A stretch of DNA of 64,000 nt, taken from the NCBI GenBank assembly GCA_964567265.1, contig CAZMLK010000001.1:395723-459722 (forward strand). Reading direction: 5' to 3'. Origin of the DNA: an uncultured Candidatus Saccharibacteria bacterium. GTDB taxonomy: Bacteria; Patescibacteriota; Minisyncoccia; Phycocordibacterales; UBA12088. Positions 29,023-59,508 of the stretch are shown here, in pieces (the stretch's first letter is position 1; every line of letters begins with the position of its first letter). Made by a program: the position numbers and the translations under genes. The notes below the pieces were generated by a model. It ran no database searches and was not told the DNA's origin. It was given only the letters and a program-made list of their open reading frames with translations.

Positions 29023-30603
29023 CTACATCGTTATCTGCACCGCATTCCCCGCCTGATCGTATCCATTCGCCTTGAAGTAACGGATCTCGTAGCTGCCGGG
29101 AGTGACATTCTGGAATGTGTAGGTGCCCGATGGGCCGGTCGCATACGACCATGCAAGATACGAGCGGTTGCCTGCCCCGGTCGCATAGAGCCCGATCCAG
29201 TCGGTCGTCGTGAACGCAGTACTTGGGCCCACCCAGCTCGCGATGATTGTATTTCCAGATCTCGATGCGGAGAGTGAATATCCGGCTGCGGCAGAAAGAT
29301 CAGCTCGTGCGACTGCCGCCTTCGCCTGTACGGTGATTTCCGGAGTAACTGCAACTGATGTGTATTTATTATTCTTCAGATACCGGATCTCGAAGGTGCC
29401 GGTGCGGTCGAGCGTGAATGTCATGTCGCCGCTCGCAGCATCCCCGGTGTATTTCCAGGTCCCGTAGCTCCGGTTCGACGCGCCCTTCTCATAGATCGCG
29501 ATCCAGTCCTGCGTATTCGACGAGCCTCCTGGCGTCTGCCAGTGCACGGTCACGGTATCACTAACTCGCGGGGTCTGAGAGGAAATCGTGAGCGAGTATC
29601 CGGCTGCCGCTGCAGCGGAGCCCAGTGTATAGGTCGCTGAGGTCGCACGCCGGGTGTAGCCGTTGTTCTCGAAGGTACGCGCCTCATATGCGCCGGGCTC
29701 GAGCGAGTCTGTATTGAAACTGAGCGTTCCCGAATTGCCGGATGGAAGATACTGCCACAGAAGATAGGAGGAATCAGCAGCGCCGACCGGATAGAGCCCG
29801 ACCCAATCCCGCGAACTGCGGCCGGTCGGCGCCTCGAACCGCACCGAGAGCGTATTCCCGGAAATGCCATTGATGGCGAGTGCGTAGTTCCCTACGGGTG
29901 CAGCCGCAGCGCTTCCGGTCGTACCGGTGGTTCCGTCTTCTGTTCCCGTCCCGCCACCACCAGTCACGATCTCGCGCCACGGACCGCTGGGCACATTGCC
30001 CGCGTCCACGAACCGCCAAGACACCAGCATCTGGTCGCCGCCGTTCAAGCAGTCGCGCATGGCGGGAGAGAGATCGATGCCGATTGATTGGCGCGGTCCC
30101 GCGCTTCCGAATACGTACGCAATATCATCCTCACCGTATGGTCCGACATCTTCCCACTGGCCGTAGCAGGTCGCACCGTTCGAGGTGACCGCCACCCAAT
30201 GATTCTTGAGCTGCGAAACGCTCTTGCTCGCGCCGGATTGATACCACGGGATCTGGCTCGCGTTCGATTTCTGGGATCCGTTATTGCCGATGTCGTTATA
30301 CGGAAGCGCGATATAGAACGGATTCTCCTTCGGAGTGAACGCGCACGGGCGGTAGCCGCATCGATTGTCGGGATCGTCTTCCCCGCCGTAATGAGTTGCC
30401 CAGAGCTCGTCCCATGCGCTCGGGACGTTCGAGATGAAGCCGTTGTCTGAGGTCGCGCCTTCGCCTACCCAGAAGACAGTCGCGTTGACCGTTTTCGGGT
30501 TCGTTTCGGTCGCGGTGATGGCTGCTGCCGGGTATGGATAGGCTGCTCCGAGTAGAAGGAGGAATACGGCTAGCGATGCGGCTCTAATGCCCTTCCGATT
30601 CAT
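29023..30603 (-). CDS. secreted protein: N-terminal conserved module (possibly DPBB/barwin-like) plus 3 copies of the same ~90-aa repeat found in 23325..25730
   Basis: Signal-like LAVFLLLLGAAYPYPAAA. N-terminal module has VFWVGEGATSDN, ENPFYIALPYND and GIDLSPAMRD. The repeats carry DWVGLY...YEARTF, DWIAIY...FEIRYL and DWIGLY...YEIRYF. Confidence 0.75.
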   Translation of the reverse strand: MNRKGIRAASLAVFLLLLGAAYPYPAAAITATETNPKTVNATVFWVGEGATSDNGFISNVPSAWDELWATHYGGEDDPDNRCGYRPCAFTPKENPFYIALPYNDIGNNGSQKSNASQIPWYQSGASKSVSQLKNHWVAVTSNGATCYGQWEDVGPYGEDDIAYVFGSAGPRQSIGIDLSPAMRDCLNGGDQMLVSWRFVDAGNVPSGPWREIVTGGGGTGTEDGTTGTTGSAAAAPVGNYALAINGISGNTLSVRFEAPTGRSSRDWVGLYPVGAADSSYLLWQYLPSGNSGTLSFNTDSLEPGAYEARTFENNGYTRRATSATYTLGSAAAAAGYSLTISSQTPRVSDTVTVHWQTPGGSSNTQDWIAIYEKGASNRSYGTWKYTGDAASGDMTFTLDRTGTFEIRYLKNNKYTSVAVTPEITVQAKAAVARADLSAAAGYSLSASRSGNTIIASWVGPSTAFTTTDWIGLYATGAGNRSYLAWSYATGPSGTYTFQNVTPGSYEIRYFKANGYDQAGNAVQITM

Positions 30604-31726: not shown

Positions 31727-31758
31727 TTAGGGTCCCAACTTTCGCTACGCTCAATTTG

Positions 31759-31830
31759 TGACCCTACCGGGAGTCGAACCCGGCTTTAGAGCTTGAGAAG
31801 CTCTCGTCCTAACCGATAGACGATAGGGCC
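31759..31830 (-). tRNA. tRNA-Glu (anticodon CUC)
   Basis: Hand-folded 72-nt cloverleaf: acceptor GGCCCTA/TAGGGTC, D-arm GTCT-ATCGGTTA-GGAC, anticodon arm AGAGC-TTCTCAA-GCTCT, 4-nt variable loop, T-arm CCGGG-TTCGACT-CCCGG. CCA is not encoded. Confidence 0.9.
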
Positions 31831-38865: not shown

Positions 38866-40455
38866 TCAAGCAGAGACTTCACGGAGACGCGCCACAAGGA
38901 AGTCTCGGTCCAGGACAGAGAGGAACCAGCCTGCCTTCGGACCGGAATCCTTGCCGAGGAATGACTGATAGAGCGCGCCGAAGAATGCCTTTGCATCAAG
39001 TCCGCTTTCCTTCCGAATCTCGTGGAGCGCGGTGTGAAGTCCTTCCCCAGTGAGAACTTCATTTGATTCGACATATGCAAGCACCTTCCCGAGCGCCGCC
39101 TTCTGCTCGCCTGAAATATTCTTCGCGTCCTCAGGAACGTCGCCTGTCTGGAGCTCGAACTTGAAGTCATCGTCTGCGTACTTGTCGAGCCAGAAGCGCG
39201 CATATTTTGCACGGAGGGCGGCTTCTGCGCGATCGTCTTCGGTGAGCGGACTTCCTTTCATGCGTTCGACTTCCTGGTACAGATCCATGTGCGGCATCTG
39301 CACGATGAACGCGACCTGCGAGAATCGCGGCAAGAAATGCTCGGGGATCATTTCACGCTCCTCAGGGAAATGGATGAAGCGGAAGAGACGCGTATCATCG
39401 TCTTCAACGCCGCTCCACGCCTTCTCCGCGAGCTTGTCGAATTGGTCGAAGAGTATCGGGATCGTATCACCTGCTGGATCGACATTCACTTGCTGGTTGA
39501 TGTCCTTGCCGAGAAGCGCGAGGCGGAAGATATGGGGCGGCAGAAGATCAGCGACATCGCGTGCAGCAGACGCATTCCCTTTCGAAGAAGACATCTTCTT
39601 GCCGCCGATCAGGAAGAACTCGTACGGCACGTTGAATGGCGGCTCGTGGCCAAAGACTTGCTTCGAGATAGCGTTCGCGACCTCGCGTGAGCCACCTTTC
39701 GTGGAGTGGTCCTTCCCCGCACCTTCGATCGCGACATTCATGACTTTGAATTTCGCCGCCCACTCTACTTTCCACGGAAGCTTCGCGCGGCCGTCGAACG
39801 GCGAGACGCTTCCTTCATGCGCGCACCCTTCCGCCCACTTCACCATGTTCGGCATGCAGACATACGAAACCCTTTCACCATCAAATCCGGTGACCTTGGT
39901 GGTGCCGATCTTGCCGCAGTTCTCGCAGATGACCTGGAGCGGATACCAGTCGTCAGGCTTCACTGAGTTTGAAATTTCCTTGTAGAGACGGCGAATGACG
40001 TCTGCGTGTTCAAGCGCGAGGCGGATGACGTCGTTGAATTCGCCCGCGCGATACTTGTCGCTGAGGCGATAGTAGCTTGGGTGGAACCCGGCTTCCTCGA
40101 TGACACCGGTGAACTCGAGTCCGTAGTACTCGGCGAAATTCTTCGCGTTGCCGACGGGAGATGGGATCGTAAAGAGCGGCTGGCCCATGTACTTGCGATA
40201 GACGGCCTCATCGAGGTACGCCGGCATGCCGTCCATCGGGTCCATGTCGTTGATCTCATAGAAAAACTCGTTGTCGACGCCCGCTTCCGTAAGCGCCTCA
40301 GAAATGACTCCGTGGATGGCTGCGCCGCGCATCGAGCCCACGTGTACCCGACCAGAGGCAGTCTTCTCATCGCGTATGACGAGTTTCTCTCCCGCTTTGA
40401 TGCGGGTTGCCAGCTTTTCTTGTATGTCGCCCGTAAGGCGGTCTAGCCAGAACAT
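38866..40455 (-). CDS. lysK: lysyl-tRNA synthetase, class I
   Basis: ASGRVHVGSMRGAAIHG (HIGH-like) and GGKKMSSSKGN (KMSKS). The 529-aa architecture fits class I LysRS. Confidence 0.9.
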   Translation of the reverse strand: MFWLDRLTGDIQEKLATRIKAGEKLVIRDEKTASGRVHVGSMRGAAIHGVISEALTEAGVDNEFFYEINDMDPMDGMPAYLDEAVYRKYMGQPLFTIPSPVGNAKNFAEYYGLEFTGVIEEAGFHPSYYRLSDKYRAGEFNDVIRLALEHADVIRRLYKEISNSVKPDDWYPLQVICENCGKIGTTKVTGFDGERVSYVCMPNMVKWAEGCAHEGSVSPFDGRAKLPWKVEWAAKFKVMNVAIEGAGKDHSTKGGSREVANAISKQVFGHEPPFNVPYEFFLIGGKKMSSSKGNASAARDVADLLPPHIFRLALLGKDINQQVNVDPAGDTIPILFDQFDKLAEKAWSGVEDDDTRLFRFIHFPEEREMIPEHFLPRFSQVAFIVQMPHMDLYQEVERMKGSPLTEDDRAEAALRAKYARFWLDKYADDDFKFELQTGDVPEDAKNISGEQKAALGKVLAYVESNEVLTGEGLHTALHEIRKESGLDAKAFFGALYQSFLGKDSGPKAGWFLSVLDRDFLVARLREVSA

Positions 40456-44271: not shown

Positions 44272-45090
44272 TTACTGCGCGCTTGTCGAGGTCGCACCCG
44301 CGGGCGCGATTTCGACCGTACGGAGCTCGCGGATGTTGACGGGACTTTTCGCGAGCGCGGTCTCGAACGAATCAGCAGCCTTCGAGCGCAGCGCGCCGAC
44401 GAGCGCGACCAAGGAGCTCGTGATTCCAGGAAGCGCGATCGGAGAATTGGTAGCAGCGATCGTACCCCGCGGAAGCTGCACGATGAAATTCCCGCCGCCC
44501 TGCCCGATCAAGGAGACGGACACCGAGGTCGTCGCCTGGAGGATATCCGCGCTGGTGCTGACTCCGGGAGACGAATACAGCGTGACCCGCGCACGGCTCG
44601 GCCCCACCTCTTCGACCGTGCCGAGCGCGAGCGCGCCGTAGGCGTACACCTTGTCCCCTTTCCGGATGCCACTCTCCTGCCCCGCGTCGATGACGAGCGA
44701 ATCATACGGAATCTCGGGCGGCCGGAGCAGGATGCCCGCGCGGATGCGCGCCCTCTCGGGATTGCGTCCCGCGAATGCGCGCAGGGACTCGTTTTCAGCC
44801 TCAAGAAGTGTCATCGCGACGCTTTTCGCGTTTGCATCGCGGAGTTCCTGCTTCAGCGCGGCATTCTCGTCAACGAGCGCGCGCTTGGAGCGGAGGAGCT
44901 CGATGACGGTACCCGATGACGCGACCGTGCCCGATTCTATCGATGCGACCGGGCGGAGCACGCCGAACACGAGGTTCTCGAGGAACGCCGGCGGCTTCGC
45001 GAAGAAGAAAAGCGCAACGACCAAAAGCGCTCCCATCACTGCGAGCTTGTAGCGGCTGAATGCTGTTTTACGTTCCTGGAGAGAGCGCAT
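44272..45090 (-). CDS. mreC: rod shape-determining protein MreC
   Basis: N-terminal TM helix, coiled coil (LKQELRDANAK), and beta-barrel repeats (GIRKGD.V, GLIGQ-like). Position after mreB. Confidence 0.85.
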   Translation of the reverse strand: MRSLQERKTAFSRYKLAVMGALLVVALFFFAKPPAFLENLVFGVLRPVASIESGTVASSGTVIELLRSKRALVDENAALKQELRDANAKSVAMTLLEAENESLRAFAGRNPERARIRAGILLRPPEIPYDSLVIDAGQESGIRKGDKVYAYGALALGTVEEVGPSRARVTLYSSPGVSTSADILQATTSVSVSLIGQGGGNFIVQLPRGTIAATNSPIALPGITSSLVALVGALRSKAADSFETALAKSPVNIRELRTVEIAPAGATSTSAQ

Positions 45091-46141
45091 CTTCGCTTTC
45101 TATGAGCACGTCCGTATGCTGGTCGAGGGTTTCAATGATAACACCGGTTCCGCGCACGACGGAGGTCAACGGATCGTTCGAGCGGTACACCGGGATCTTG
45201 AGGATCGCCGTCAAAAATTCGGGCATGCCGCGGATGAGCGCGCCGCCGCCGACCAAGTGGATGCCGCGCTGCATCACGTCCGCCAGGACTTCAGGCGGCG
45301 TGGTCTCGAGGACCTCGCGGACGGATTCGACCAAGGTATCGATGGAATGGGAAATCGCTTCGCGGATATCGGCGTCTGTAATGACGACCTCACGCGGGAG
45401 GCCGGTCACGAGATCGCGGCCGCGTACGGTCGCTTCGATCGGCGCATCGCCCGGAGATACGGAACAAGCAGCAATCTTGAGCTCCTCCGAGGTCTTCTCG
45501 CCGATCAATATCTTGAATTCGCTCCGGATGTAGGAGGCGATGTCGGCATTCAGCTTGTCGCCCGCGACGCGGAGATTCTTCGCGCGCACGATGCCGGAAA
45601 GCGAGATGACGGCGATATCGGTCGTGCCGCCGCCGATGTCTATGATCATGCTGCCGATCGGCGCATGGATCGGCAGCTTGATGCCGATCGCGGCAGCCAT
45701 CGGCTCCTCGACGATGTAGACCTCGCGGGCGCCGGCATTCTTCGCTGCATCGCGGACCGCCCGCGTCTCGACGTTCGTGATGCCAGACGGCACGCCGATG
45801 ACGACGCGCGGGCCGAAGATCGTGCGGCGTCCTTCCTGCGCTTTGTTGAGGAGGTATGAAAGCATCTCTTCGGTGACCTCGAAGTCCGAGATCACGCCAT
45901 CAACGAGAGGGCGGACGGCCGTGATGTGGGTCGGCGTGCGGCCGAGCATGTCCTTCGCCTGCGCTCCGACGGCGACCACCTGGCCCGTCTTCTGGTTGAT
46001 GGCGACGACGGAGGGCTCATTGAGGACGATGCCCTTGCCGCGAACATACACGAGCGTGTTCGCCGTGCCGAGATCGATGCCGATGTCATTCGAGAAGAGG
46101 TGCGAGAACCTCCCGAACATTTTTTTGAGTCTTTCTACCAT
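45068..46141 (-). CDS. mreB: rod shape-determining protein MreB
   Basis: IGIDLGTANTLVYVRGKGIVLNEPSVVA, DIGGGTTD and GGGALIRG, the actin/MreB fold motifs. Confidence 0.95.
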   Translation of the reverse strand: MVERLKKMFGRFSHLFSNDIGIDLGTANTLVYVRGKGIVLNEPSVVAINQKTGQVVAVGAQAKDMLGRTPTHITAVRPLVDGVISDFEVTEEMLSYLLNKAQEGRRTIFGPRVVIGVPSGITNVETRAVRDAAKNAGAREVYIVEEPMAAAIGIKLPIHAPIGSMIIDIGGGTTDIAVISLSGIVRAKNLRVAGDKLNADIASYIRSEFKILIGEKTSEELKIAACSVSPGDAPIEATVRGRDLVTGLPREVVITDADIREAISHSIDTLVESVREVLETTPPEVLADVMQRGIHLVGGGALIRGMPEFLTAILKIPVYRSNDPLTSVVRGTGVIIETLDQHTDVLIESEDALSPGT

Positions 46142-51300: not shown

Positions 51301-51398
51301 AATTATTATCGCGGAACTCTCGCCATGCGCGCGCATTTACAAAAATGAATTTTAAGCATCTAATGTCAGCAGAACATCGCTCTTGAGAGGGGCCGTTG

Positions 51399-51938
51399 AT
51401 GCCGCATACCCCGGTGAATGCAAGCGTTCCTGCAATCTATTACGGCGAGCAGTATGCAATTGAAAGGATCGTGGATGCACGCAAAGTCGAGCGTGACATT
51501 TTCAGGAGGCGTGTGGGCGGGATGATCGTCGAACCTACGGACGGGACCCTGTTCCAGTTGCTCACTCCGAATGCCGCATGGCAACATCCGGAGCGTCCTT
51601 TTTCGCTTCGGGAGTGCCTGACATTCCGGAGCGTGCCCGCATGGGACCCCTCTGATCCAGGGGGCAACCCGATCCGAGGCTTCGTTCGAGCCAATAGAAC
51701 GGAGTGGGAAGATCATATCTCTTCAGGGGCCATCCCGCTCGGGCATTTCTTGGGCGCGATCGTAGTGCCGATCCTCCCCGCCAAAGCTGGCGGAACGCCT
51801 GACCTGCTCACGACGCCTTCGATTCCCCAAAAAACAAGGAATGCCGGCGTCGACCCGGCATGGAGGGCTAGAGTCGGGTGCGCGATCATCGTCGCACTCC
51901 TTCTCTTTTACCTACTGAACCTCTTGCCCAAAAGTTAA
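51399..51938 (+). CDS. hypothetical protein with C-terminal TM anchor (179 aa)
   Basis: GAGAGGGG RBS 6 nt before the ATG. C-terminal VGCAIIVALLLFYLLNLL. Terminator downstream. No recognised motif. Confidence 0.5.
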   Translation: MPHTPVNASVPAIYYGEQYAIERIVDARKVERDIFRRRVGGMIVEPTDGTLFQLLTPNAAWQHPERPFSLRECLTFRSVPAWDPSDPGGNPIRGFVRANRTEWEDHISSGAIPLGHFLGAIVVPILPAKAGGTPDLLTTPSIPQKTRNAGVDPAWRARVGCAIIVALLLFYLLNLLPKS

Positions 51939-51968
51939 ACCCCGCACATCCATGCGGGGTTCTTTCTT
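51939..51968 (+). terminator. rho-independent terminator
   Basis: ACCCCGCA-catcca-TGCGGGGT followed by TCTTTCTTAT. Confidence 0.75.
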
Positions 51969-54777
51969 ATATGATTTTCGGAGGCGATACTGGAAGCGTC
52001 GACTCCTTGCGGTAGCGCGCGAGGATATCTTCCTCCACGAGCGAGCGCGCCTTTCCATATTTGAGATATGAGAGCTGCTTCAGCGCTTCCGCATTCTCAG
52101 GATTCCCCGCCTTCGGTGCCATTGTCCTGATATTGAACGGCTTTGCCGGCCTCCCTTCAGCGAGAATCTTGAGGTACGCGTTCCGGTTGTCGATATTCAT
52201 GATGTCGCTCGCAGCGAAGGTCGGCGCGAACTGCGGCTCGAAGAATTTCGCATCCTCGGCGCCGACGCGGAACACCGCCATCGATCCGACGTTGCCGAAG
52301 ATCGAATCCCGGATGCCCTCCTGGAGCTGCGCGATGAACTGGTGCGCCACCGTGAGCCCGAGCTTGTACTTGCGCGCTTCGGAAAGGATGGTCGAGATGG
52401 AATCGGTGGTGACATTCTGGAATTCGTCGATATAGAGATAGAACGGCGGCATCTCCTTCCCACTGCCGAACGCGTCCACGCGCGAGAGCGCTGCCATGAG
52501 GATCTTGCCGACCAGGATGAGGCCGAGGAGATTCGCGTTGATGTCGCCGAGCCGGCCCTTCGAGAGGTTCACGAGGAGGATCTTCTTCGAATCCATCACC
52601 TCGCGGAAATTGAACGCGGATTTTTCCTGCGCGATGATCGGGCGCATGTACTCGTTCGCGGTGAAGACATCGAACTTGTTCGTGATATACGGCACGATGT
52701 TCGCGAGCGATGCTTCCCCCTGTGCCTTCGTGGCGATCTCCTGCCAGAACTGGAGGACGACCGGGTTCTTGCAGTGTGAGAGCTTGAGCGCGCGATACTT
52801 CGCGTCCGCGAGGACGCGGGACACATCGAGCAAGGTCATGCCGCTCTCGGGGTGCTCGAGGACGAGCAGCGTCGCGTTGCGGAAATACTGCTCGAATGCA
52901 GGGCCCATCGACTCGGGAGAGCCGGCGTACAACTTCTTGAAGATGCTGAAAAGCTCATTGACCACGAAGGTCTTCTGTTCCGGGAACCGGGGATCGTATT
53001 CGAGCATGTTGAGGCCCATCACGCGCTCCATGTATGCGGGATCGAAGTAGATGACGTCTTCCGCGCGCTCGGGCGGGATCGCGGCGAGGATATCCTGCAC
53101 ATCGCTACCATGCGGATCGATGAAACAGACGCCTGCGCCCTCCTCTATGTCCTGGATGATCATGTTCTTGAGGAGCGTCGTCTTACCGGTACCCGTCTGC
53201 CCGATCACGTAGAAATGTCGGAGGCGATCCTCTGGCGCGAGATACGCTTTCGTTTCCGCATTACGGAATGAATTGATGCCGAGAAGCGTCCCCGTTGCTG
53301 AGAGCCCGAGCGGCGGCGGCGCGTCAGCGGATTTCGACTGCCGGAATTCGGGCGAGGATTTCACGACGCCTGTCGGGAAGTGGAGCACAGTCGCAAGCTC
53401 GCGGAGCGAAAACGGGAACGATTCGGCGGCGCCGAAATCACGGAAGGTGAAGCGTGTCAGGAGCGCACGAAGCGCGCCGCCCGTCGCCCGTACGAATTCG
53501 AAGCGATTGCCATCCGCATGATGGAATTGATGGAAGCTCGATTCGATGTCGCGAAGGATGCCTTCAGCGCGCGCCTGGTCAGTCGCGGATACCACGATGC
53601 GGACATTGACCGGCACAATGAAGGATTCCCTCTTTTTCCTGATCGCTTCAAGGGCGACCTTGTCGACAATCTTTTCCTCAGGCGCCTCTTTTGCTTCAGC
53701 CGGCTTCGAGGAGAGGAGTGCGCCTTTGAGCGCGCCGCCGATCGCGAATGCGGCACTTCCGAGAAGGCTCGATTCGACTTCGCGATACACGATCTTTGGC
53801 TTCTCACCCTTCTCGATACGCTTCTCGATGCGGAGGTAGCGCCCGAGATAATCGTCACGGCCAGGTCGGATCACGAACTGGATCGACGCACCTGCTCCCT
53901 CCTTCTCGATTTTCGAGAACGCATTCAAAAGCACTGAGAGCGGATCGACATCAAATGCATCGTAGGTTTTTATCGGATAGATCGGGAGTTCTGCAAGGCG
54001 CGCGGTCGAAGCCAGTGTCACGCCGTTCTCTACGAAGATGTTGTAGTCGCCTTTTTCCTCGCGGAGATGCGCATGCGGGAAGAGCGACAAGAGCTGCTTC
54101 TCGAACAGCTCTGCCTTGGTGGTCGGCACCGATACATAGAAGACGATTTCCTGGCTTGCTGATGAAACGGCGACTTCGAAGACGAAGACCTCGCCGGTGT
54201 CATTCTCGCGAGATCCCGTGCCGAAGAGTCCCGAATAGAATTGTTCCATCACAGAGACCAGCTCCTTGATGGTCTTCCGCTTCGCGCTTCCGGCATCCTC
54301 ATCCTGATTGATGGAAGGCAGTGTCACTTCGTACAAGGTCATGTTGAGCTCGCGCCAGACCGGCTCATTTTCCTTCACCCCCGGCACTGGATATCCGGCA
54401 TGGATGTATTGCACGAGGACGCGGTGGAAATCGTCGGCGATATGCGGGCTATCCATGCGGTCAGCGACCGTGAGCGCATTCTTGAGTCCCTTGTCGCGCA
54501 TGACGCCAAGAAGCTCGCCCATGATGGCGTCGTCCTTCTCAGGCGGCAGGTCGAGGATGATGTCATCCACTTGCTCGGCAGTGAGGATGCGTTCCTGTGG
54601 GAGCACTGATTCCGAAAGCGCGCGTCGGTATTCCTCGATATGCGCGCTTGTTGCCGCTTCCTTGGAGACCGGATAGCCGATTTCTGCCATGGCACGCTCC
54701 TTCTCCGCGATCTGGCCGCGCAGATACTGAATCTCCTCCTCAGGAGAGGAGAATTTCTCGTTCACTGGGAATTCCAT
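51967..54777 (-). CDS. VirD4/TraD-like (type IV coupling protein family) P-loop NTPase with a ~480-aa soluble N-terminal domain and no TM segments
   Basis: HFYVIGQTGTGKTTLL (Walker A), CFIDPHGSD, FYLYIDEFQNV (Walker B), RKYKLGLTVAHQFIAQL. These resemble the TrwB/TraD/VirD4 ATPase core. The N-terminal half has no motif I recognise. Confidence 0.75.
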   Translation of the reverse strand: MEFPVNEKFSSPEEEIQYLRGQIAEKERAMAEIGYPVSKEAATSAHIEEYRRALSESVLPQERILTAEQVDDIILDLPPEKDDAIMGELLGVMRDKGLKNALTVADRMDSPHIADDFHRVLVQYIHAGYPVPGVKENEPVWRELNMTLYEVTLPSINQDEDAGSAKRKTIKELVSVMEQFYSGLFGTGSRENDTGEVFVFEVAVSSASQEIVFYVSVPTTKAELFEKQLLSLFPHAHLREEKGDYNIFVENGVTLASTARLAELPIYPIKTYDAFDVDPLSVLLNAFSKIEKEGAGASIQFVIRPGRDDYLGRYLRIEKRIEKGEKPKIVYREVESSLLGSAAFAIGGALKGALLSSKPAEAKEAPEEKIVDKVALEAIRKKRESFIVPVNVRIVVSATDQARAEGILRDIESSFHQFHHADGNRFEFVRATGGALRALLTRFTFRDFGAAESFPFSLRELATVLHFPTGVVKSSPEFRQSKSADAPPPLGLSATGTLLGINSFRNAETKAYLAPEDRLRHFYVIGQTGTGKTTLLKNMIIQDIEEGAGVCFIDPHGSDVQDILAAIPPERAEDVIYFDPAYMERVMGLNMLEYDPRFPEQKTFVVNELFSIFKKLYAGSPESMGPAFEQYFRNATLLVLEHPESGMTLLDVSRVLADAKYRALKLSHCKNPVVLQFWQEIATKAQGEASLANIVPYITNKFDVFTANEYMRPIIAQEKSAFNFREVMDSKKILLVNLSKGRLGDINANLLGLILVGKILMAALSRVDAFGSGKEMPPFYLYIDEFQNVTTDSISTILSEARKYKLGLTVAHQFIAQLQEGIRDSIFGNVGSMAVFRVGAEDAKFFEPQFAPTFAASDIMNIDNRNAYLKILAEGRPAKPFNIRTMAPKAGNPENAEALKQLSYLKYGKARSLVEEDILARYRKESTLPVSPPKII

Positions 54778-54785
54778 GTGCGTCT

Positions 54786-54791
54786 ATTATA
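54786..54791 (-). promoter_or_regulatory. -10 box of the VirD4-like ATPase gene (leaderless-type)
   Basis: Minus strand: TATAAT-8 nt-ATG. Confidence 0.5.
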
Positions 54792-54825: not shown

Positions 54826-54876
54826 GAATAGCAAGAAAGAAGCGGCCGGCATTCGCCAAAAAGGCGAATGCCGGCC
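54826..54876 (-). terminator. rho-independent terminator of the 54884 gene
   Basis: Minus strand: 14-bp stem GGCCGGCATTCGCC-ttttt-GGCGAATGCCGGCC followed by GCTTCTTTCTT. Confidence 0.75.
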
Positions 54877-54883
54877 AGAGCTG

Positions 54884-55519
54884 CTAGCGATGTCTGTCGA
54901 AGCGCGCGTCGCCAGTATCATGCGCGATAAAGAATGCGGTGTGGTTGCCGAAGAGGCATTCGCCCAACTCTCCCAGCTCCGGAATGCGCGGACGCTGGAT
55001 TGTGTAGAAGGGATCGATACCATACCGATGACGAGTCACCTTCCCTCCCGTTACCTCAAGCGCTCGCGCTACCGCATCCCATACGTGCTGCGGCACGCCC
55101 GGGTCAAGATAGTTGAGTGCCGGTACCGCTTCAGCTCTCCACCAATCGGGCCCATGTTTCGTATCGGGATGGAAAATCATCAGCTGTCGGTTGTAGATCT
55201 GGAACCCGACGAAACTGACGCACACAACCCCCACCCATCCTACGGCCGTCATGGCCGGACCCCAGGATGCGAAGATAAGGAACAGCGATGCAAGCATCAG
55301 CCACGCGAGTACTGGCCGATTGAGGTGCGCGCGGAGCAGAAATGCACCATATCGACTTTGCATCTTCGAGTACATGAAGCCCCGGCAGCAGTCACCGCGC
55401 ATGACATTGAGGCCCTGTGCCGATATGCAGGCATCGAATGCACTTCGCGTAAATAGCGAAAAGGATGGAAACCGAGGAATTGAGTCTCCGAGCAGTCTAG
55501 TGGCGATGGCGGCGGTCAT
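54884..55519 (-). CDS. hypothetical membrane protein (2 TM helices plus a ~110-aa C-terminal domain)
   Basis: GGGAGGG RBS 7 nt before MTAAIATRLL. TM helices VLAWLMLASLFLIFASW and AVGWVGVVCVSFVGFQIY. No recognised motif. Confidence 0.5.
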   Translation of the reverse strand: MTAAIATRLLGDSIPRFPSFSLFTRSAFDACISAQGLNVMRGDCCRGFMYSKMQSRYGAFLLRAHLNRPVLAWLMLASLFLIFASWGPAMTAVGWVGVVCVSFVGFQIYNRQLMIFHPDTKHGPDWWRAEAVPALNYLDPGVPQHVWDAVARALEVTGGKVTRHRYGIDPFYTIQRPRIPELGELGECLFGNHTAFFIAHDTGDARFDRHR

Positions 55520-55618
55520 GAATAGACCCTCCCAACGTGTCGAAGGCGTCTGCCTTCGATTCCATATATAAAAATGAGGCACGAGGTGCCCTGAGTCAAG
55601 CAACGCGCAGCCTATGAG

Positions 55619-56632
55619 CTACCGCTTCGCGATGATGCTCTTCTTGTAGACGTCGAGATGGTTGAGCGCGATGCCGGTCCCCTTCACCACGCAATACGGG
55701 GCCTCTTTCGCAAGAACCGCCTTCACGCCCGTGCGACGGAGCACGAGTTCCGGGAAATTGCGAAGCTGCGAGGTGCCGCCGGTCATGATGATGCCCTTGT
55801 CGATGATGTCGGAGGCAAGCTCGGGCGGCGTCTCCTGGAGCACATCCTTGATCGCCTTGATCATTTCCCGCAAGTCGCGCGCGGTCGCTTTCACGATCTC
55901 ATTCGTCTTCACTTCTGCAGTGCGCGGAAGGCCGGTCAAGAGATCCCGGCCGCGGATCGACATGATGAGTTCCTCTTCAAGAGGGACGGCCGAGCCGACC
56001 TCGATCTTTATGCGCTCAGCGGTCTTGTCGCCGATCGCGAGATTGAAGGTCTTCTTCACATAATCGGTGATCGCATGATCGAGGCGGTTCCCGGCGCATT
56101 TCACGGACGTCGAGGCGACGATGCCGCCGAGCGAGATCACGGCGACGTCGATCGTGCCGCCGCCGATGTCGACGATCATATGCCCACGCGGCTCATGGAT
56201 CGGAATGCCGGCGCCGATTGCCGCAAGAATCGGTTCCTTGACCACGTACGCATTCTTCGCACCCGCGTTCACTGCGGCTTCGACGACGGCGCGGCGCTCG
56301 GTCGAAGTGACGCCCGCTGGAACCGAGATCATCACGTCCGGGCGGAACAGCGTCCACTTCCCCATCGATTTGCGGATATAGTAGCGGAGCATCGCTTCGG
56401 TGACGCGATAATCGGCGATGACGCCATCTTTCATCGGGCGGTACGCGATGATCGATTCCGGAGTGCGTCCGATCATCTCCTTCGCGTCGTTGCCGACCGC
56501 GAGGATCTTGTTGTCGCTGACGGAGACGGCGACCACCGACGGCTCATTGAGCACGATGCCCGCGCCCGGCACGAAGACGAGTGTCGTCGTGGTCCCGAGG
56601 TCGATCCCGATTTTCTTGGTGAAAAATGACAT
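55619..56632 (-). CDS. second MreB-like actin-family protein (paralog)
   Basis: KIGIDLGTTTTLVFVPGAGIVLNEPSVVAV, DIGGGTID and MTGGTSQLRN. Start at the internal ATG of track ORF 55619..56719. Confidence 0.85.
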   Translation of the reverse strand: MSFFTKKIGIDLGTTTTLVFVPGAGIVLNEPSVVAVSVSDNKILAVGNDAKEMIGRTPESIIAYRPMKDGVIADYRVTEAMLRYYIRKSMGKWTLFRPDVMISVPAGVTSTERRAVVEAAVNAGAKNAYVVKEPILAAIGAGIPIHEPRGHMIVDIGGGTIDVAVISLGGIVASTSVKCAGNRLDHAITDYVKKTFNLAIGDKTAERIKIEVGSAVPLEEELIMSIRGRDLLTGLPRTAEVKTNEIVKATARDLREMIKAIKDVLQETPPELASDIIDKGIIMTGGTSQLRNFPELVLRRTGVKAVLAKEAPYCVVKGTGIALNHLDVYKKSIIAKR

Positions 56633-56677
56633 GGTGTCGCCTAGGCAGTATACCTGCTTGCGCTTTGCTGGTCGTTG

Positions 56678-56706
56678 TTGACATATTGGACTTAATATGT
56701 TTTTAT
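56678..56706 (+). promoter_or_regulatory. sigma70-like promoter of the 56737 gene
   Basis: TTGACA-17 nt-TTTTAT, then AGGAGG 7 nt before the TTG start. Confidence 0.4.
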
Positions 56707-56736
56707 ATCTCTCAGACAAACACAGGAGGACCTCCC

Positions 56737-57724: not shown

Positions 57725-58000
57725 CTATTCAATCGGGTCGACCGTGTCCACAAGCGCGGCTTCAAGGCTTACGATGCGCTCCCACGCATCCTTGTTACTC
57801 GCGGAGAGCGCGAGCATCTTCGCGGCGAAGGTCGCCTGGATGAACGGGATCACCCATGGATCCTTCTCGAACAGGTCCTTGAGGTGATCGAGCGTCTCGG
57901 CATCCTGTCCTGATTTGATCAACTCGAAGAGCATCTCCTTCTCATCCTCAAGGAGCGGGGATGTATCAATTGATTTCTTGATAGAGTCCAGCGTTTTCAT
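57725..58000 (-). CDS. hypothetical helical protein, module gene B copy 1 (91 aa)
   Basis: Paralog of 58746..59015. Shared motifs are IKKSID.S.LL..EKE, a central PW, and AAK.LA. Confidence 0.5.
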   Translation of the reverse strand: MKTLDSIKKSIDTSPLLEDEKEMLFELIKSGQDAETLDHLKDLFEKDPWVIPFIQATFAAKMLALSASNKDAWERIVSLEAALVDTVDPIE

Positions 58001-58006
58001 ACAGTG

Positions 58007-58336
58007 CTATTGGAAATCAGCCGCGTTGATTTCGAGAGATTGCTCGCCTCCGAGCTTGGCAGCGACGAGCGATACCGGGTTCCCGTCCGCGTCGACGACG
58101 TAAGTAATCGTGACTTCGCGCCCCCCGTACGTGACGACACGCTCCGCGGTCTCTCTGCCGAACTCGAATCCACTGCTCCGCTCTGCTGCAGGAGCCGTGA
58201 GCGCCCGAAGGAGCGAGGTGAGTGCTGCGCGTTCAGGCTCGCCTTCATGCAACCCGAGCACTTCTGCTTCCGCGACCTCAAGCATGGCGGGGTCGAATTC
58301 GTTTGAATATGGGATTCCCTCTTTCATAGCGGACAT
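58007..58336 (-). CDS. hypothetical protein, module gene A copy 1 (109 aa)
   Basis: Paralog of 59029..59508. Shares the N-terminal M.EGIP and a C-terminal V..T......D..G...V......L....AA.F pattern. Preceded by a TTGCAG-N17-TAGTAT promoter. Confidence 0.5.
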   Translation of the reverse strand: MSAMKEGIPYSNEFDPAMLEVAEAEVLGLHEGEPERAALTSLLRALTAPAAERSSGFEFGRETAERVVTYGGREVTITYVVDADGNPVSLVAAKLGGEQSLEINAADFQ

Positions 58337-58745: not shown

Positions 58746-59015
58746 TTATTCGATGCTCGCGACCAGGTTCCGCTCGAATTCGAGGATGCGCATGAGCGCG
58801 TCGGAGTTCTCGTTCTCGATCGCAAGCGACTTCGCGGCGAGCGTCATGAACAGGGTCGAGACCATCCACGGATGCGCTTCGAGAAGTGCGGCGAGATCGG
58901 CGAGATACGTCTCTTCCAAATCGCCTTCAGTGAGCGCGACCAGCAAGGCCTCCTTCTCGTGCGGCAGGAGCTGCGACTCGTCTATGCTTTTCTTGATGCG
59001 TGCCTTTGGTTCCAT
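58746..59015 (-). CDS. hypothetical helical protein, module gene B copy 2 (89 aa)
   Basis: MEPKARIKKSIDESQLLPHEKEALL ... HPWMV ... LAAKSLA. Start could instead be 59045. Confidence 0.5.
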   Translation of the reverse strand: MEPKARIKKSIDESQLLPHEKEALLVALTEGDLEETYLADLAALLEAHPWMVSTLFMTLAAKSLAIENENSDALMRILEFERNLVASIE

Positions 59016-59028
59016 GCAAATGTTGCCC

Positions 59029-59508
59029 TTAGACGAATGCAGCAAGATCGAGGACCATGTCCGGCATACCCACGCGCTTCACGACAATCTTCTCCGTCGC
59101 TTCGCCGCCGTCATCGGAAGCGAGCACGGTATGCTCGACCTGCGTTCCATCTTGATATTCCTGCTCGAGCGCGCTGTGGCGCTGATTGCCACCACCAAAC
59201 GCTTTCCTCAGTACGGGCGCGAGATTGATGCGGGTTGTCCTTCCGGGAATGTAATTCGGATTCTCCTTGTAATGCGTCACTGCTGGGCGGGATTCGAACG
59301 AGGATTTATATTCCACATGCATGCCGGTGCAGGCGCTGGTCATGAGCGCGAGCGCGCCAGCTGCCGCCAGCTTCAGCTTTGAATTGCCATGTTCCGCGAG
59401 ATTGGCCTCGCCTTCTGAAAAGTGCGCGAACGATTCCGTGAACGGACCTCTCTCGACATCAGACACTTCCGCTTCAATCGGTATTTCGTTTGGGATCCCT
59501 TCGTGCAT
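59029..59508 (-). CDS. hypothetical protein, module gene A copy 2 (159 aa) with an internal lipobox-like segment
   Basis: MHEGIPNEIP ... KLKLAAAGALALMTSAC ... VLDLAAFV. Starts 13 nt after the murA stop, with CATAAT overlapping that stop. Confidence 0.5.
   Translation of the reverse strand: MHEGIPNEIPIEAEVSDVERGPFTESFAHFSEGEANLAEHGNSKLKLAAAGALALMTSACTGMHVEYKSSFESRPAVTHYKENPNYIPGRTTRINLAPVLRKAFGGGNQRHSALEQEYQDGTQVEHTVLASDDGGEATEKIVVKRVGMPDMVLDLAAFV

Follow-up and report, generated by a model that had tools for sequence, protein, structure and literature searches.

How would a VirD4/TraD-like ATPase work when it has neither N-terminal transmembrane (TM) helices nor T4SS genes beside it? The question is raised by a gene on the minus strand of the 64-kb stretch of DNA analysed here (the window), which a first-pass annotation had described as an orphan, soluble coupling-protein-like ATPase with a large unknown N-terminal domain, perhaps anchored by an adjacent protein with two TM segments (2-TM). 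Our analysis places the protein in the uncharacterised DUF8128 family, one ortholog of which has been tabulated before, and assigns to it a VirB4-like N-terminal-domain (NTD) fold, predicted from a structural model, on a coupling-type motor.

A coupling-type motor behind a soluble N-terminal region

The open reading frame picked out by the first-pass annotation is real and carries the ATPase motifs quoted for it. The gene and its flanking signals are as follows.

51967-54777, minus strand: complete CDS (ORF list), 936 aa plus stop, ATG start; Patescibacteria DUF8128/T4CP-like ATPase family
54786-54791, minus strand: TATAAT, a -10-like hexamer read off the sequence, 8 nt before the ATG
54843-54877, minus strand: terminator-like hairpin (15 bp, 11 GC pairs) with a T-rich tail, immediately past the stop codon that ends the upstream 2-TM ORF
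51938-51961, reported on the plus strand: GC-rich hairpin between the convergent stops of the ATPase gene and of the ORF 51396-51938 (+)

The start codon at M1 is supported by conservation of the N-terminus from this residue in 85 aligned homologues. Both the TATAAT and the terminator of the upstream gene had been proposed earlier, and both are found in the sequence; the promoter function of the hexamer is nevertheless unproven, since no complete -35/-10 pair came out of a consensus scan of the minus strand. With no obvious Shine-Dalgarno sequence before the ATG, the transcript would have little or no leader. The hairpin beyond the stop codon could be a bidirectional terminator, which the minus-strand transcript may also use.

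The protein divides into the following parts.

54373-54777, minus strand: N-terminal helical extension, aa 1 to ~135 (helices 12-126 in AF2 secondary structure)
53353-54360, minus strand: core N-terminal domain, aa ~140-475, the DUF8128 core; predicted alpha/beta, VirB4/TrwK NTD fold
52108-53289, minus strand: T4CP-type motor, aa ~497-890, a RecA-like nucleotide-binding domain (NBD) with an inserted all-alpha domain
53176-53202, minus strand: Walker A / P-loop GQTGTGKTT, aa 526-534
52618-52989, minus strand: all-alpha domain in the NBD, aa ~597-720, with the family-specific motifs GPxFEQYFRNA and VPYITxKFD
52420-52437, minus strand: Walker B LYIDEF, aa 781-786
52324-52380, minus strand: EARKYK (putative arginine finger, aa 800-805) and VAHQFIAQL (putative sensor Gln, aa 810-818)
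51970-52107, minus strand: C-terminal helical tail, aa 891-936, moderately conserved (helices 893-907 and 911-922 in the predicted model)

In the C-terminal half, the key residues of the motifs are invariant among the 85 aligned homologues, namely G526, Q527, T528, G529, G531 and K532 in Walker A, D784, E785 and F786 in Walker B, and E800, A801, R802, K803, Y804, A811, H812 and Q813 in the two motifs that follow, whose roles as arginine finger and sensor Gln are putative and taken from the FtsK/HerA/T4CP superfamily; a DPHG motif at aa 554 likewise has invariant key residues, and the all-alpha domain also contains invariant positions. The VirD4/TraD-like assignment is supported by Pfam matches marginally above their cut-offs (PF02534, 24.8 bits against 20.1; PF12696, 23.4 against 22; PF10412, 20.7 against 20.5) and by an NF045973 alignment spanning aa 516-842, the T4CP models covering ~300 residues; the NCBIfam TraD/VirD4 models score far below cut-off (e.g. 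45 against 366 and 38 against 250 bits). In the predicted model, helices 600-715 lie between strands 575-578 and 733-737 as an all-alpha insert, which is the layout of TrwB-type coupling proteins, and a match to PF10412 (TrwB_AAD_bind) is precomputed for many homologues. PDB sequence searches with the whole protein and with the family profile returned only P-loop-level matches (TrwB and DotL) and nothing on the NTD, and we found neither the HerA HAS-barrel nor the FtsK alpha/beta/gamma organisation with a family-level HMM match. The C-terminal tail, in which S903 and Y922 are at least 90% conserved, might speculatively bind a partner, as the TraD tail does.

The motor resembles VirD4, TrwB, TraD, DotL and Cagβ (PF02534, PF10412, PF12696) in its RecA-like NBD with the inserted all-alpha domain and in its Walker A, Walker B, E-x-RK-Y and (A)HQ motifs. 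Unlike these coupling proteins, which have an N-terminal TM anchor and are linked to a relaxase and/or a T4SS, the protein begins with a ~475-aa soluble region and is encoded by a core chromosomal gene in housekeeping operons. The absence of N-terminal TM helices was rightly noted before: nothing in aa 1-500 qualifies by Kyte-Doolittle hydropathy, the top 19-residue window in the first 480 aa reaching 1.48 in a Gly/Ala-rich, low-pLDDT stretch, and the protein-wide maximum of 1.9 (aa 746) is a buried ATPase-fold helix just before Walker B.

The ~480 aa called unrecognised are so for older Pfam and NCBIfam, but newer Pfam has the family PF26449 (DUF8128), a match precomputed in all 120 homologues listed of more than 960 in total; membership of the window protein is by proxy, from these homologues, including one (P0001) at 97% identity. 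Nor is the fold a blank, as a Foldseek search with the NTD model returned only TrwK/VirB4 chains at E<=1e-3, and we conclude that the core, as modelled, has the fold of the VirB4 N-terminal domain. This relation is purely structural, for hhalign gave a probability of 11% between the family and an alignment of TcpF-type VirB4, and we accordingly claim no homology to VirB4 from sequence. The core holds a variable, low-confidence Lys/Glu-rich insert (aa ~340-372). The helical extension before it, for which no fold match was found, carries the motif NPHxxDDFHR (aa ~110-119), with D115 invariant and H112, D116, F117, H118 and R119 at least 90% conserved, and is missing from some relatives (~815-823 aa) whose alignment begins at query aa ~95-142. 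Judged from its sequence, the protein is a soluble two-domain NTPase of the FtsK/HerA-VirB4-VirD4 superfamily, in which, according to the model, a ~340-aa domain of VirB4-NTD fold replaces the TM anchor, preceded in Paceibacteria by the ~135-aa helical extension.

A core chromosomal family with plasmid relatives

Far from being an orphan or a one-off, the full-length architecture recurs in more than 960 homologues that are 53-62% identical over 96-100% of the length, with one further at 97%, and their source names, where given, are all Parcubacteria or Patescibacteria. Relatives of the NTD number 957 among 1.84 billion cluster representatives, and GTDB species genomes hold 557 confirmed stretches, the informative titles among the 80 loci kept being all Patescibacteria; the IMG/VR viral contigs scanned hold no relatives. 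No public assembly contained an exact match to the window protein. One ortholog, KKS37798.1, had already been tabulated with the CONJScan t4cp1 profile as a VirD4-type T4CP ('t4cp1', 86% coverage, 'VirB4 proximity: No'), and its genome (GCA_000998045.1) also encodes a separate VirB4, KKS39299.1 (Quiñonero-Coronel et al., 2025; PMC12102498).

The gene is core and chromosomal, in a non-mobile context, in Patescibacteria. In many Paceibacteria it ends the ribosomal spc operon, in the order secY-adk-map-X-ndk; among 78 loci, Map is present in 43 and lies directly upstream on the same strand in 24, and in 26 the gene is directly followed by Ndk. A Gracilibacteria-type context reads L9-RuvX-X-PGK with SSB nearby, and in the window the gene sits with mreB, holB and frr. 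The sizeable window ORFs scanned encode housekeeping and cell-envelope proteins (MreB twice, MurA, RseP, Frr, HolB, PBPs, aaRSs, DnaB, RecR, RmuC and others), with no VirB4, VirB6, relaxase or pilin gene among those scanned across the 64 kb, in agreement with the first-pass annotation; the related loci extend this, as none of 80 has T4SS genes within 10 kb on either side. The absence cannot be carried over to whole genomes, however, since in 2,417 of 3,035 Patescibacteria genomes a virB4 cluster lies elsewhere on the chromosome (PMC12102498). Among related loci we found no gene conserved as a partner: four downstream candidates (a CYTH protein, the only one with a Pfam match, a 290-aa protein, a 424-aa helical protein and a Na+/H+ antiporter-like protein) were each seen in only 3-4 loci and were rejected.

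Outside Patescibacteria, the family has relatives on plasmids. Bacillales proteins of 883-913 aa, such as WP_248290882.1 (Shouchella clausii NZ_CP012476.1) and WEZ26732.1 (B. subtilis CP120602.1), with BLASTP E-values of 5e-27 and 1e-32, align from query aa 213-268 to the C-terminus, that is, collinearly over the latter half of the NTD and all of the motor, and match Pfam DUF8128; the two proteins checked have no TM helix. They adjoin Replic_Relax relaxases, Tcp-type genes and a separate TcpF/VirB4. A Streptomyces relative of 929 aa (WP_266501393.1, NZ_CP108493.1) overlaps the start of a Replic_Relax relaxase gene. BLASTP with the NTD alone reached E 2e-7 against the B. subtilis protein and gave nothing significant against the Streptomyces plasmid homologue, for which the Pfam search had no match either, and we thus claim NTD homology for the Bacillales proteins only. 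These plasmid ATPases share the length class (883-929 aa) with the family, but are only 21-24% identical to it, lack the N-terminal helical extension bearing the DDFHR motif, and reside on plasmids together with a relaxase gene and Tcp-type T4SS genes, so that they presumably act as coupling proteins. To our knowledge they are experimentally uncharacterised.

Outside CPR, the motor domain comes closest (32-35% identity, hhalign E 4e-56) to orphan ATPases of Proteobacteria whose surroundings are not conjugative. These T4CP-like ATPases (e.g. WP_247904195.1, Bradyrhizobium p131_1), together with MADS mad8 and the DndH C-domain, share the all-alpha-domain motifs and the lack of T4SS linkage, but have different, unmatched N-terminal regions and lie in conflict-island or mobile contexts rather than in ribosomal operons.

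What the motor could serve

The explanation that we prefer, with about even confidence, is that the protein is a domesticated, soluble coupling-type motor which docks via its VirB4-like domain and feeds a chromosomal T4SS. It would assemble into an ATP-driven ring, as its relatives do, and would reach the membrane peripherally, the NTD probably providing oligomerisation or docking contacts, as does the NTD of VirB4, through which the dimer forms and VirB3 and VirB8 are contacted (PMC12857230). The T4SS of Patescibacteria derives from monoderm MPF-FATA systems, with virB4 in 80% of genomes, and its clusters lack relaxases (PMC12102498); the protein would be the coupling or substrate-feeding ATPase of this chromosomal machine, encoded elsewhere in most Patescibacteria. 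Given its place in housekeeping operons, the gene would be constitutively expressed.

It is also possible, though we hold it doubtful, that a conjugative coupling protein has been exapted to drive, as a ring motor in the cytoplasm, a different core process independent of any T4SS, such as DNA uptake or processing for natural transformation or nucleotide scavenging, or else chromosome- or replication-associated DNA handling. The core operonic contexts (spc with adk and ndk, L9-RuvX-X-PGK with SSB, mreB/holB/frr) fit such a role, as do the consistent distance from T4SS genes in 80 loci and the non-conjugative settings of the closest non-CPR motor relatives. T4CP homologues occur in 2,918 of 3,035 genomes (96%) against 2,417 (80%) for VirB4, and the authors of that survey themselves propose possible T4CP exaptation (PMC12102498). 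In S. epibionticum, moreover, the T4SS genes are essential and SEML1_0293 (921 aa, a T4CP by annotation and possibly an ortholog of the window gene) is dispensable. Apart from the operonic contexts, these observations, together with the relaxase-less clusters, the want of a conserved partner gene, and an NTD-VirB4 relation that is structural only and comes from a predicted model, count against the feeding of a T4SS. On the other hand, the neighbours vary between classes and point to no specific partner or pathway; docking to a T4SS-like platform would be the simplest reason for a docking domain of VirB4 type to have been retained; the relatives in Bacillales and Streptomyces are linked to relaxases; TM7x at least has FtsK, so that replacement of FtsK is not required; and the excess of genomes with a T4CP only may reflect MAG incompleteness.

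The two-domain architecture is that of VirB4, which raises a third reading, that of a highly divergent VirB4 proper, not a coupling protein but the ATPase that assembles or energises a T4SS-like machine. The NTD fold matches VirB4 only, and VirB4, TrwK and TcpF are likewise TM-less two-domain proteins (~800-940 aa; 936 aa here). We nevertheless consider this improbable: AAA_10 (PF12846) and CagE_TrbE_VirB (PF03135) are absent, TIGR00929 (E>=0.01) and NF045975 match the P-loop only, and the T4CP models span ~300 residues, with t4cp1 reaching 86% coverage in the ortholog KKS37798.1. The low hhalign probability against TcpF and the absence of an adjacent VirB3 argue in the same direction, as does the separate canonical VirB4 encoded both in the ortholog's genome and, as TcpF, on the Bacillales plasmid.

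An anti-phage or conflict ATPase, comparable to MADS mad8, DndH/DptH or other HerA-like defence motors, was suggested by the mad8 (PADLOC, E 9.6e-14, aa 520-846) and DndH matches and by a proteobacterial motor-domain relative lying among CHAT and TPR genes, but is very improbable and was rejected on genomic context: the family occupies ribosomal and housekeeping operons with stable synteny rather than defence islands, has no companion defence genes nearby, is absent from IMG/VR, and shows a near-universal vertical conservation at ~55% identity that is atypical of defence genes.

Equally hard to credit is a truly orphan, lineage-novel ATPase tethered by the adjacent 2-TM protein, as the first-pass annotation had offered. 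The ORF itself (54884-55603) is plausible, with two hydrophobic segments (KD ~1.8) and its own terminator, and pIP501 TraI/TraJ provides a precedent for anchoring in trans, TraJ being a coupling-type ATPase without a membrane anchor of its own that is thought to be recruited by the 2-TM TraI (PMC12857230). The DUF8128 family differs from TraJ, compared here by description, in that no conserved small membrane partner was found for it. We know of no long VirB4-like NTD in TraJ. The tether is largely refuted by non-conservation, as no homologue of the 2-TM ORF lies beside the gene in 85 related loci (tblastn, E<=0.01) and in the most closely related syntenic locus (L001) the corresponding gap is taken up by unrelated sequence; besides, a terminator and a separate -10 element part the two genes, and the ATPase is no orphan. 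We therefore reject the ORF as a conserved anchor.

Implications for Patescibacteria and for T4SS ATPases

A large part of bacterial diversity belongs to the host-dependent Patescibacteria. In the one species that is genetically tractable the T4SS is essential, yet it comes without a recognised coupling protein or relaxase. A near-universal soluble motor is an obvious candidate for the missing substrate-feeding ATPase, in keeping with our preferred explanation, or else for a translocase of DNA or protein that has been exapted and is central to epibiotic life. A bolder proposal, which we think unlikely, is that DUF8128 forms a third, unrecognised branch of the VirB4/VirD4 ATPases, a 'missing link' with an ancestral VirB4-type NTD and a coupling-type motor, fixed in Patescibacteria as a near-universal, T4SS-independent housekeeping translocase; if this were true, a candidate role would be that of a cytoplasmic motor driving the import of DNA or the scavenging of nucleotides, in organisms unable to make nucleotides. 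The combination of a VirB4-type NTD with a T4CP-type motor is common to the relaxase-linked, TM-less plasmid ATPases of Bacillales, and possibly to the Streptomyces one. This architecture bears on two questions: how the T4SS ATPases came to diverge into two families, and in what way a coupling protein can engage the secretion channel without a membrane anchor of its own.

The ATPase gene and its surroundings in the window

The gene under study and its small neighbour are the following:

51967-54777, minus strand: ATPase ORF, 936 aa, ATG start
54884-55603, minus strand: two-helix (2-TM) ORF, probably about 163 aa from an internal Met, lineage-specific

The four coupling-protein motifs named in the first-pass annotation are present (GQTGTGKTT at aa 526, DPHG at aa 554, LYIDEF at aa 781 and VAHQFIAQL at aa 810), and an alignment with 84 homologues shows the catalytic residues G526-K532, D554-G557, D784-F786, E800-Y804 and A811-Q813 to be invariant. 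As had been stated, the protein has no transmembrane helix; its sole strongly hydrophobic window, aa 746-764, is the buried helix preceding Walker B in the ATPase core. A -10-like TATAAT (54786-54791) stands 8 nt upstream of the ATG, and the preceding ORF is succeeded by a terminator-like, GC-rich hairpin of 15 bp and its T-rich tail (54877-54843). Because the TATAAT is so close to the ATG and the start region (54775-54791, minus strand) has no Shine-Dalgarno sequence, the sequence implies that the mRNA would be leaderless or near-leaderless.

In Pfam scans of the 64 kb, the sizeable ORFs have housekeeping and envelope functions only, including two MreB, MurA, RseP, Frr, HolB, PBP2s, MraW, several aminoacyl-tRNA synthetases, DnaB, RecR, RmuC, a P-type ATPase and a PriA-like protein. 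VirB4, VirB6, relaxase and pilin are all missing among them. Composition is even (50-63% GC), with no island signature. Since the ORF, its motifs and signals and the T4SS-free window all hold up, the original observation is confirmed.

Several other features of the window deserve mention. The two MreB paralogues (45068-46141 and 55619-56719, both minus strand) are 44% identical over 339 aa and lie 9.5 kb apart; the first is in an apparent mreB-mreC-PBP2 arrangement, judged by synteny with the closest syntenic relative (locus L001), the second is just upstream of the ATPase gene, and the pair is kept in L001. Between murA and mreB, a two-gene cassette of small proteins is tandemly duplicated (57725-58336 and 58746-59508, both minus strand); its members of about 91 and 99 aa share 39% identity (E 3e-13) and have no Pfam match, and L001 carries a similar pair (178 and 89 aa) at this position. 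Three large proteins, apparently located at the cell surface and perhaps envelope or host-interaction factors, are clustered at 23325-25730, 25912-28848 and 29023-30603 (all minus strand): a GDSL lipase with SKICH-like matches, a 978-aa protein with beta-helix, Ig-like and PG_binding_1 matches, and a 526-aa SKICH-match protein. The lysyl-tRNA synthetase (38866-40455, minus strand) is of class I (PF01921), the less common form in bacteria, and tRNA-Glu(CTC) (31758-31830, minus strand) is the single RNA gene found in the window by Rfam and ARAGORN.

Architecture of the two halves

T4CP models span the whole motor (aa ~497-890), with PF02534 at aa 519-821, PF12696 at aa 778-839 and the VirD4-like NF045973 at aa 516-842, and SXT_TraD matches it too; Pfam scores are marginally over cut-offs and NCBIfam scores far under equivalog thresholds. 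Like TrwB-type proteins, the model has an all-alpha insertion (helices 600-715) within the NBD.

The N-terminal half, described at first as unknown, is covered by DUF8128 (PF26449); it had seemed empty because the older Pfam release has no such model. Modelled separately, aa 1-500 reached a pLDDT of 83.7 and a pTM of 0.77 with a VirB4-NTD-like fold, and an independent Foldseek search returned 13 matches at E<=1e-3, all of them TrwK/VirB4 chains. As neither the CTD-only VirB4 structure nor any RecA-like protein appears among the matches, what is being matched is the N-terminal domain of VirB4, the part reported to form the dimer and to touch VirB3, VirB8 and the membrane (PMC12857230). At the sequence level this relation is not demonstrable (11% probability in hhalign against a TcpF-type VirB4 alignment). 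The fold matches and the T4CP alignments thus predict a TM-less protein in which a VirB4-type N-terminal domain is joined to a T4CP-type motor. We regard it as a T4CP variant.

A Patescibacteria-wide family with plasmid relatives

The label "orphan" does not survive a search of 5.8 billion proteins, which gave more than 960 significant matches. Among the best 120 of these, one is 97% identical and the others are full-length (898-991 aa, 53-62% identity); named sources are Parcubacteria, Paceibacteria and Patescibacteria MAGs, and all 120 have PF26449 precomputed. Used alone as the query, the N-terminal 480 aa matched 957 of 1.84 billion cluster representatives (135 of them at E<=1e-30), with full-length relatives of 800-1120 aa. 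Since some of these align only from query aa ~140 onward, residues 1 to ~135 form a lineage-specific extension. In GTDB species genomes, at least 557 pattern-matched stretches were confirmed, which at up to two patterns per gene amounts to at least about 280 genes. All informative titles among the 80 loci kept are Patescibacteria (Nomurabacteria, Taylorbacteria, Kaiserbacteria, Paceibacterota, Minisyncoccia and others), and no family member was found on viral contigs of IMG/VR.

Clustering of ORFs from 85 loci showed that the gene, in many Paceibacteria, sits in the terminal part of the spc ribosomal-protein operon (...S5-L15-SecY-Adk-Map-[gene]-Ndk). Map occurs in 43 of 78 loci (immediate same-strand upstream neighbour in 24) and Ndk in 40, in 26 of which it comes directly after the gene. 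The lineage to which the window belongs (L001, L039, L051, L073) differs: there the gene comes after mreB and before holB, frr and rseP. Gracilibacteria-type genomes show yet another order, IleRS-SecG-L9-RuvX-[gene]-PGK. None of the neighbourhoods gave a match to a TcpF/VirB4 HMM or contained a second family copy. The gene is a vertically inherited core gene without a conserved partner nearby. Some lineages carry a lineage-restricted gene 3' of it, 0-24 nt away or with a 4-nt overlap, which may be a local operon partner: a 290-aa unknown protein (L004 12748-13620, L078), a helical unknown protein of about 424 aa, or a CYTH-domain protein. Such genes form cluster c39 in L012, L019 and L066, and c31 in L013, L015 and L017.

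The 2-TM ORF encodes two adjacent hydrophobic helices and a soluble tail of about 100 aa, ahead of a strong terminator hairpin. It has no Pfam match and no homologue in any of the 85 loci, and the equivalent gap in L001 encodes unrelated sequence, which counts against the proposal that it anchors the ATPase in the membrane; we give that model little credence.

A tblastn search of 72,556 plasmids for relatives beyond Patescibacteria gave 504 records, mostly from Bacillus, Streptomyces, haloarchaea and Sulfolobus. The longest alignments were to 883-913-aa "DUF87" proteins of Bacillales plasmids (query aa 213-931, E 5e-27; aa 268-888, E 1e-32), which also have no TM helix and whose homologues carry DUF8128 matches; the N-terminal portion alone matches at E 2e-7. 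The gene for the Shouchella clausii protein directly precedes that of a replication-relaxation (Replic_Relax) relaxase, on a plasmid that also has genes for conjugal transfer and, as a distinct protein, a TcpF-type VirB4 of 837 aa; the B. subtilis plasmid relative has TcpD/TcpE-family genes downstream. On a Streptomyces plasmid, the stop codon of a 929-aa homologue overlaps the Replic_Relax gene start; BLASTP with the N-terminal domain alone gave no significant match to this homologue. Pairing with a relaxase is a classical coupling-protein signature. The T4CP of pLS20 itself is a different protein (786 aa, 2 TM helices; PMC8557374).

The closest non-CPR motor sequences are proteobacterial orphans (32-35% identity, hhalign E 4e-56) with unrelated N-termini and non-conjugative contexts. 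An example is an orphan T4CP-like ATPase of 708 aa from Bradyrhizobium p131_1 (L088, 7074-9200): it shares 32% identity with the motor, its N-terminal 293 aa have no match, and genes for CHAT-domain and TPR proteins lie on either side; this locus looks like an uncharacterised conflict system.

Readings of function

The family thus combines a strongly conserved, intact T4CP-type NTPase and a VirB4-NTD-like fold with no membrane anchor, and a core-genome placement with kinship to relaxase-linked plasmid proteins. We give about an even chance to a domesticated T4SS-coupled motor: the protein would assemble as a ring and handle substrate at the expense of ATP, its N-terminal domain might serve peripheral docking or oligomerisation, and it may serve a chromosomal MPF-FATA-like T4SS. 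In Patescibacteria, virB4 was found in 2,417 of 3,035 genomes, in a Patescibacteria-specific clade nested within the monoderm MPF-FATA class (PMC12102498).

A T4SS-independent, exapted translocase is possible, if on the unlikely side. In its favour, none of the loci places the gene near T4SS genes, relaxases are absent, and T4CP homologues are commoner than VirB4 (96% vs 80% of genomes). Furthermore, SEML1_0293 of S. epibionticum (921 aa), comparable to our protein by its T4CP annotation only, is non-essential in Tn-seq (PMC10633639 supplement). The same screen found the T4SS essential, as well as SEML1_0142 (1019 aa), a second long ATPase with a TraM-recognition domain (PMC10633639), so that strain ML1 has two long T4CP-like ATPases with opposite calls; the main text describes its T4SS as lacking a recognisable coupling protein. 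A divergent VirB4 proper, suggested by the N-terminal fold and set against a T4CP-type motor, and a defence ATPase, suggested by a PADLOC mad8 match to the motor of this housekeeping-embedded gene, are both improbable.

The window gene adds a member to a known but uncharacterised family, one already counted among the Patescibacteria "T4CP homologues far from virB4". Its L039 ortholog, KKS37798.1, is catalogued as a T4CP (profile t4cp1, 86% coverage, "VirB4 proximity: No") in a genome that also encodes the VirB4 KKS39299.1 (Quiñonero-Coronel et al. 2025, Table S3, PMC12102498). That survey found 5,713 VirD4-type homologues over 2,918 genomes, 148 of them near virB4, and its authors wrote that exaptation "cannot be ruled out"; its text, searched for mention of TM helices, N-termini or ribosomal operons, yielded nothing on the architecture of these homologues, and a full-text literature search for DUF8128 found no paper. 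To our knowledge, three points have apparently not been described: that DUF8128 folds like the VirB4 NTD, that relaxase-linked plasmid proteins of Bacillales (and possibly Streptomyces) have the same TM-less architecture, and the spc-operon synteny. The broad phenomenon is already in print; the family itself comes as a surprise for T4SS and CPR specialists, and offers them testable hypotheses.
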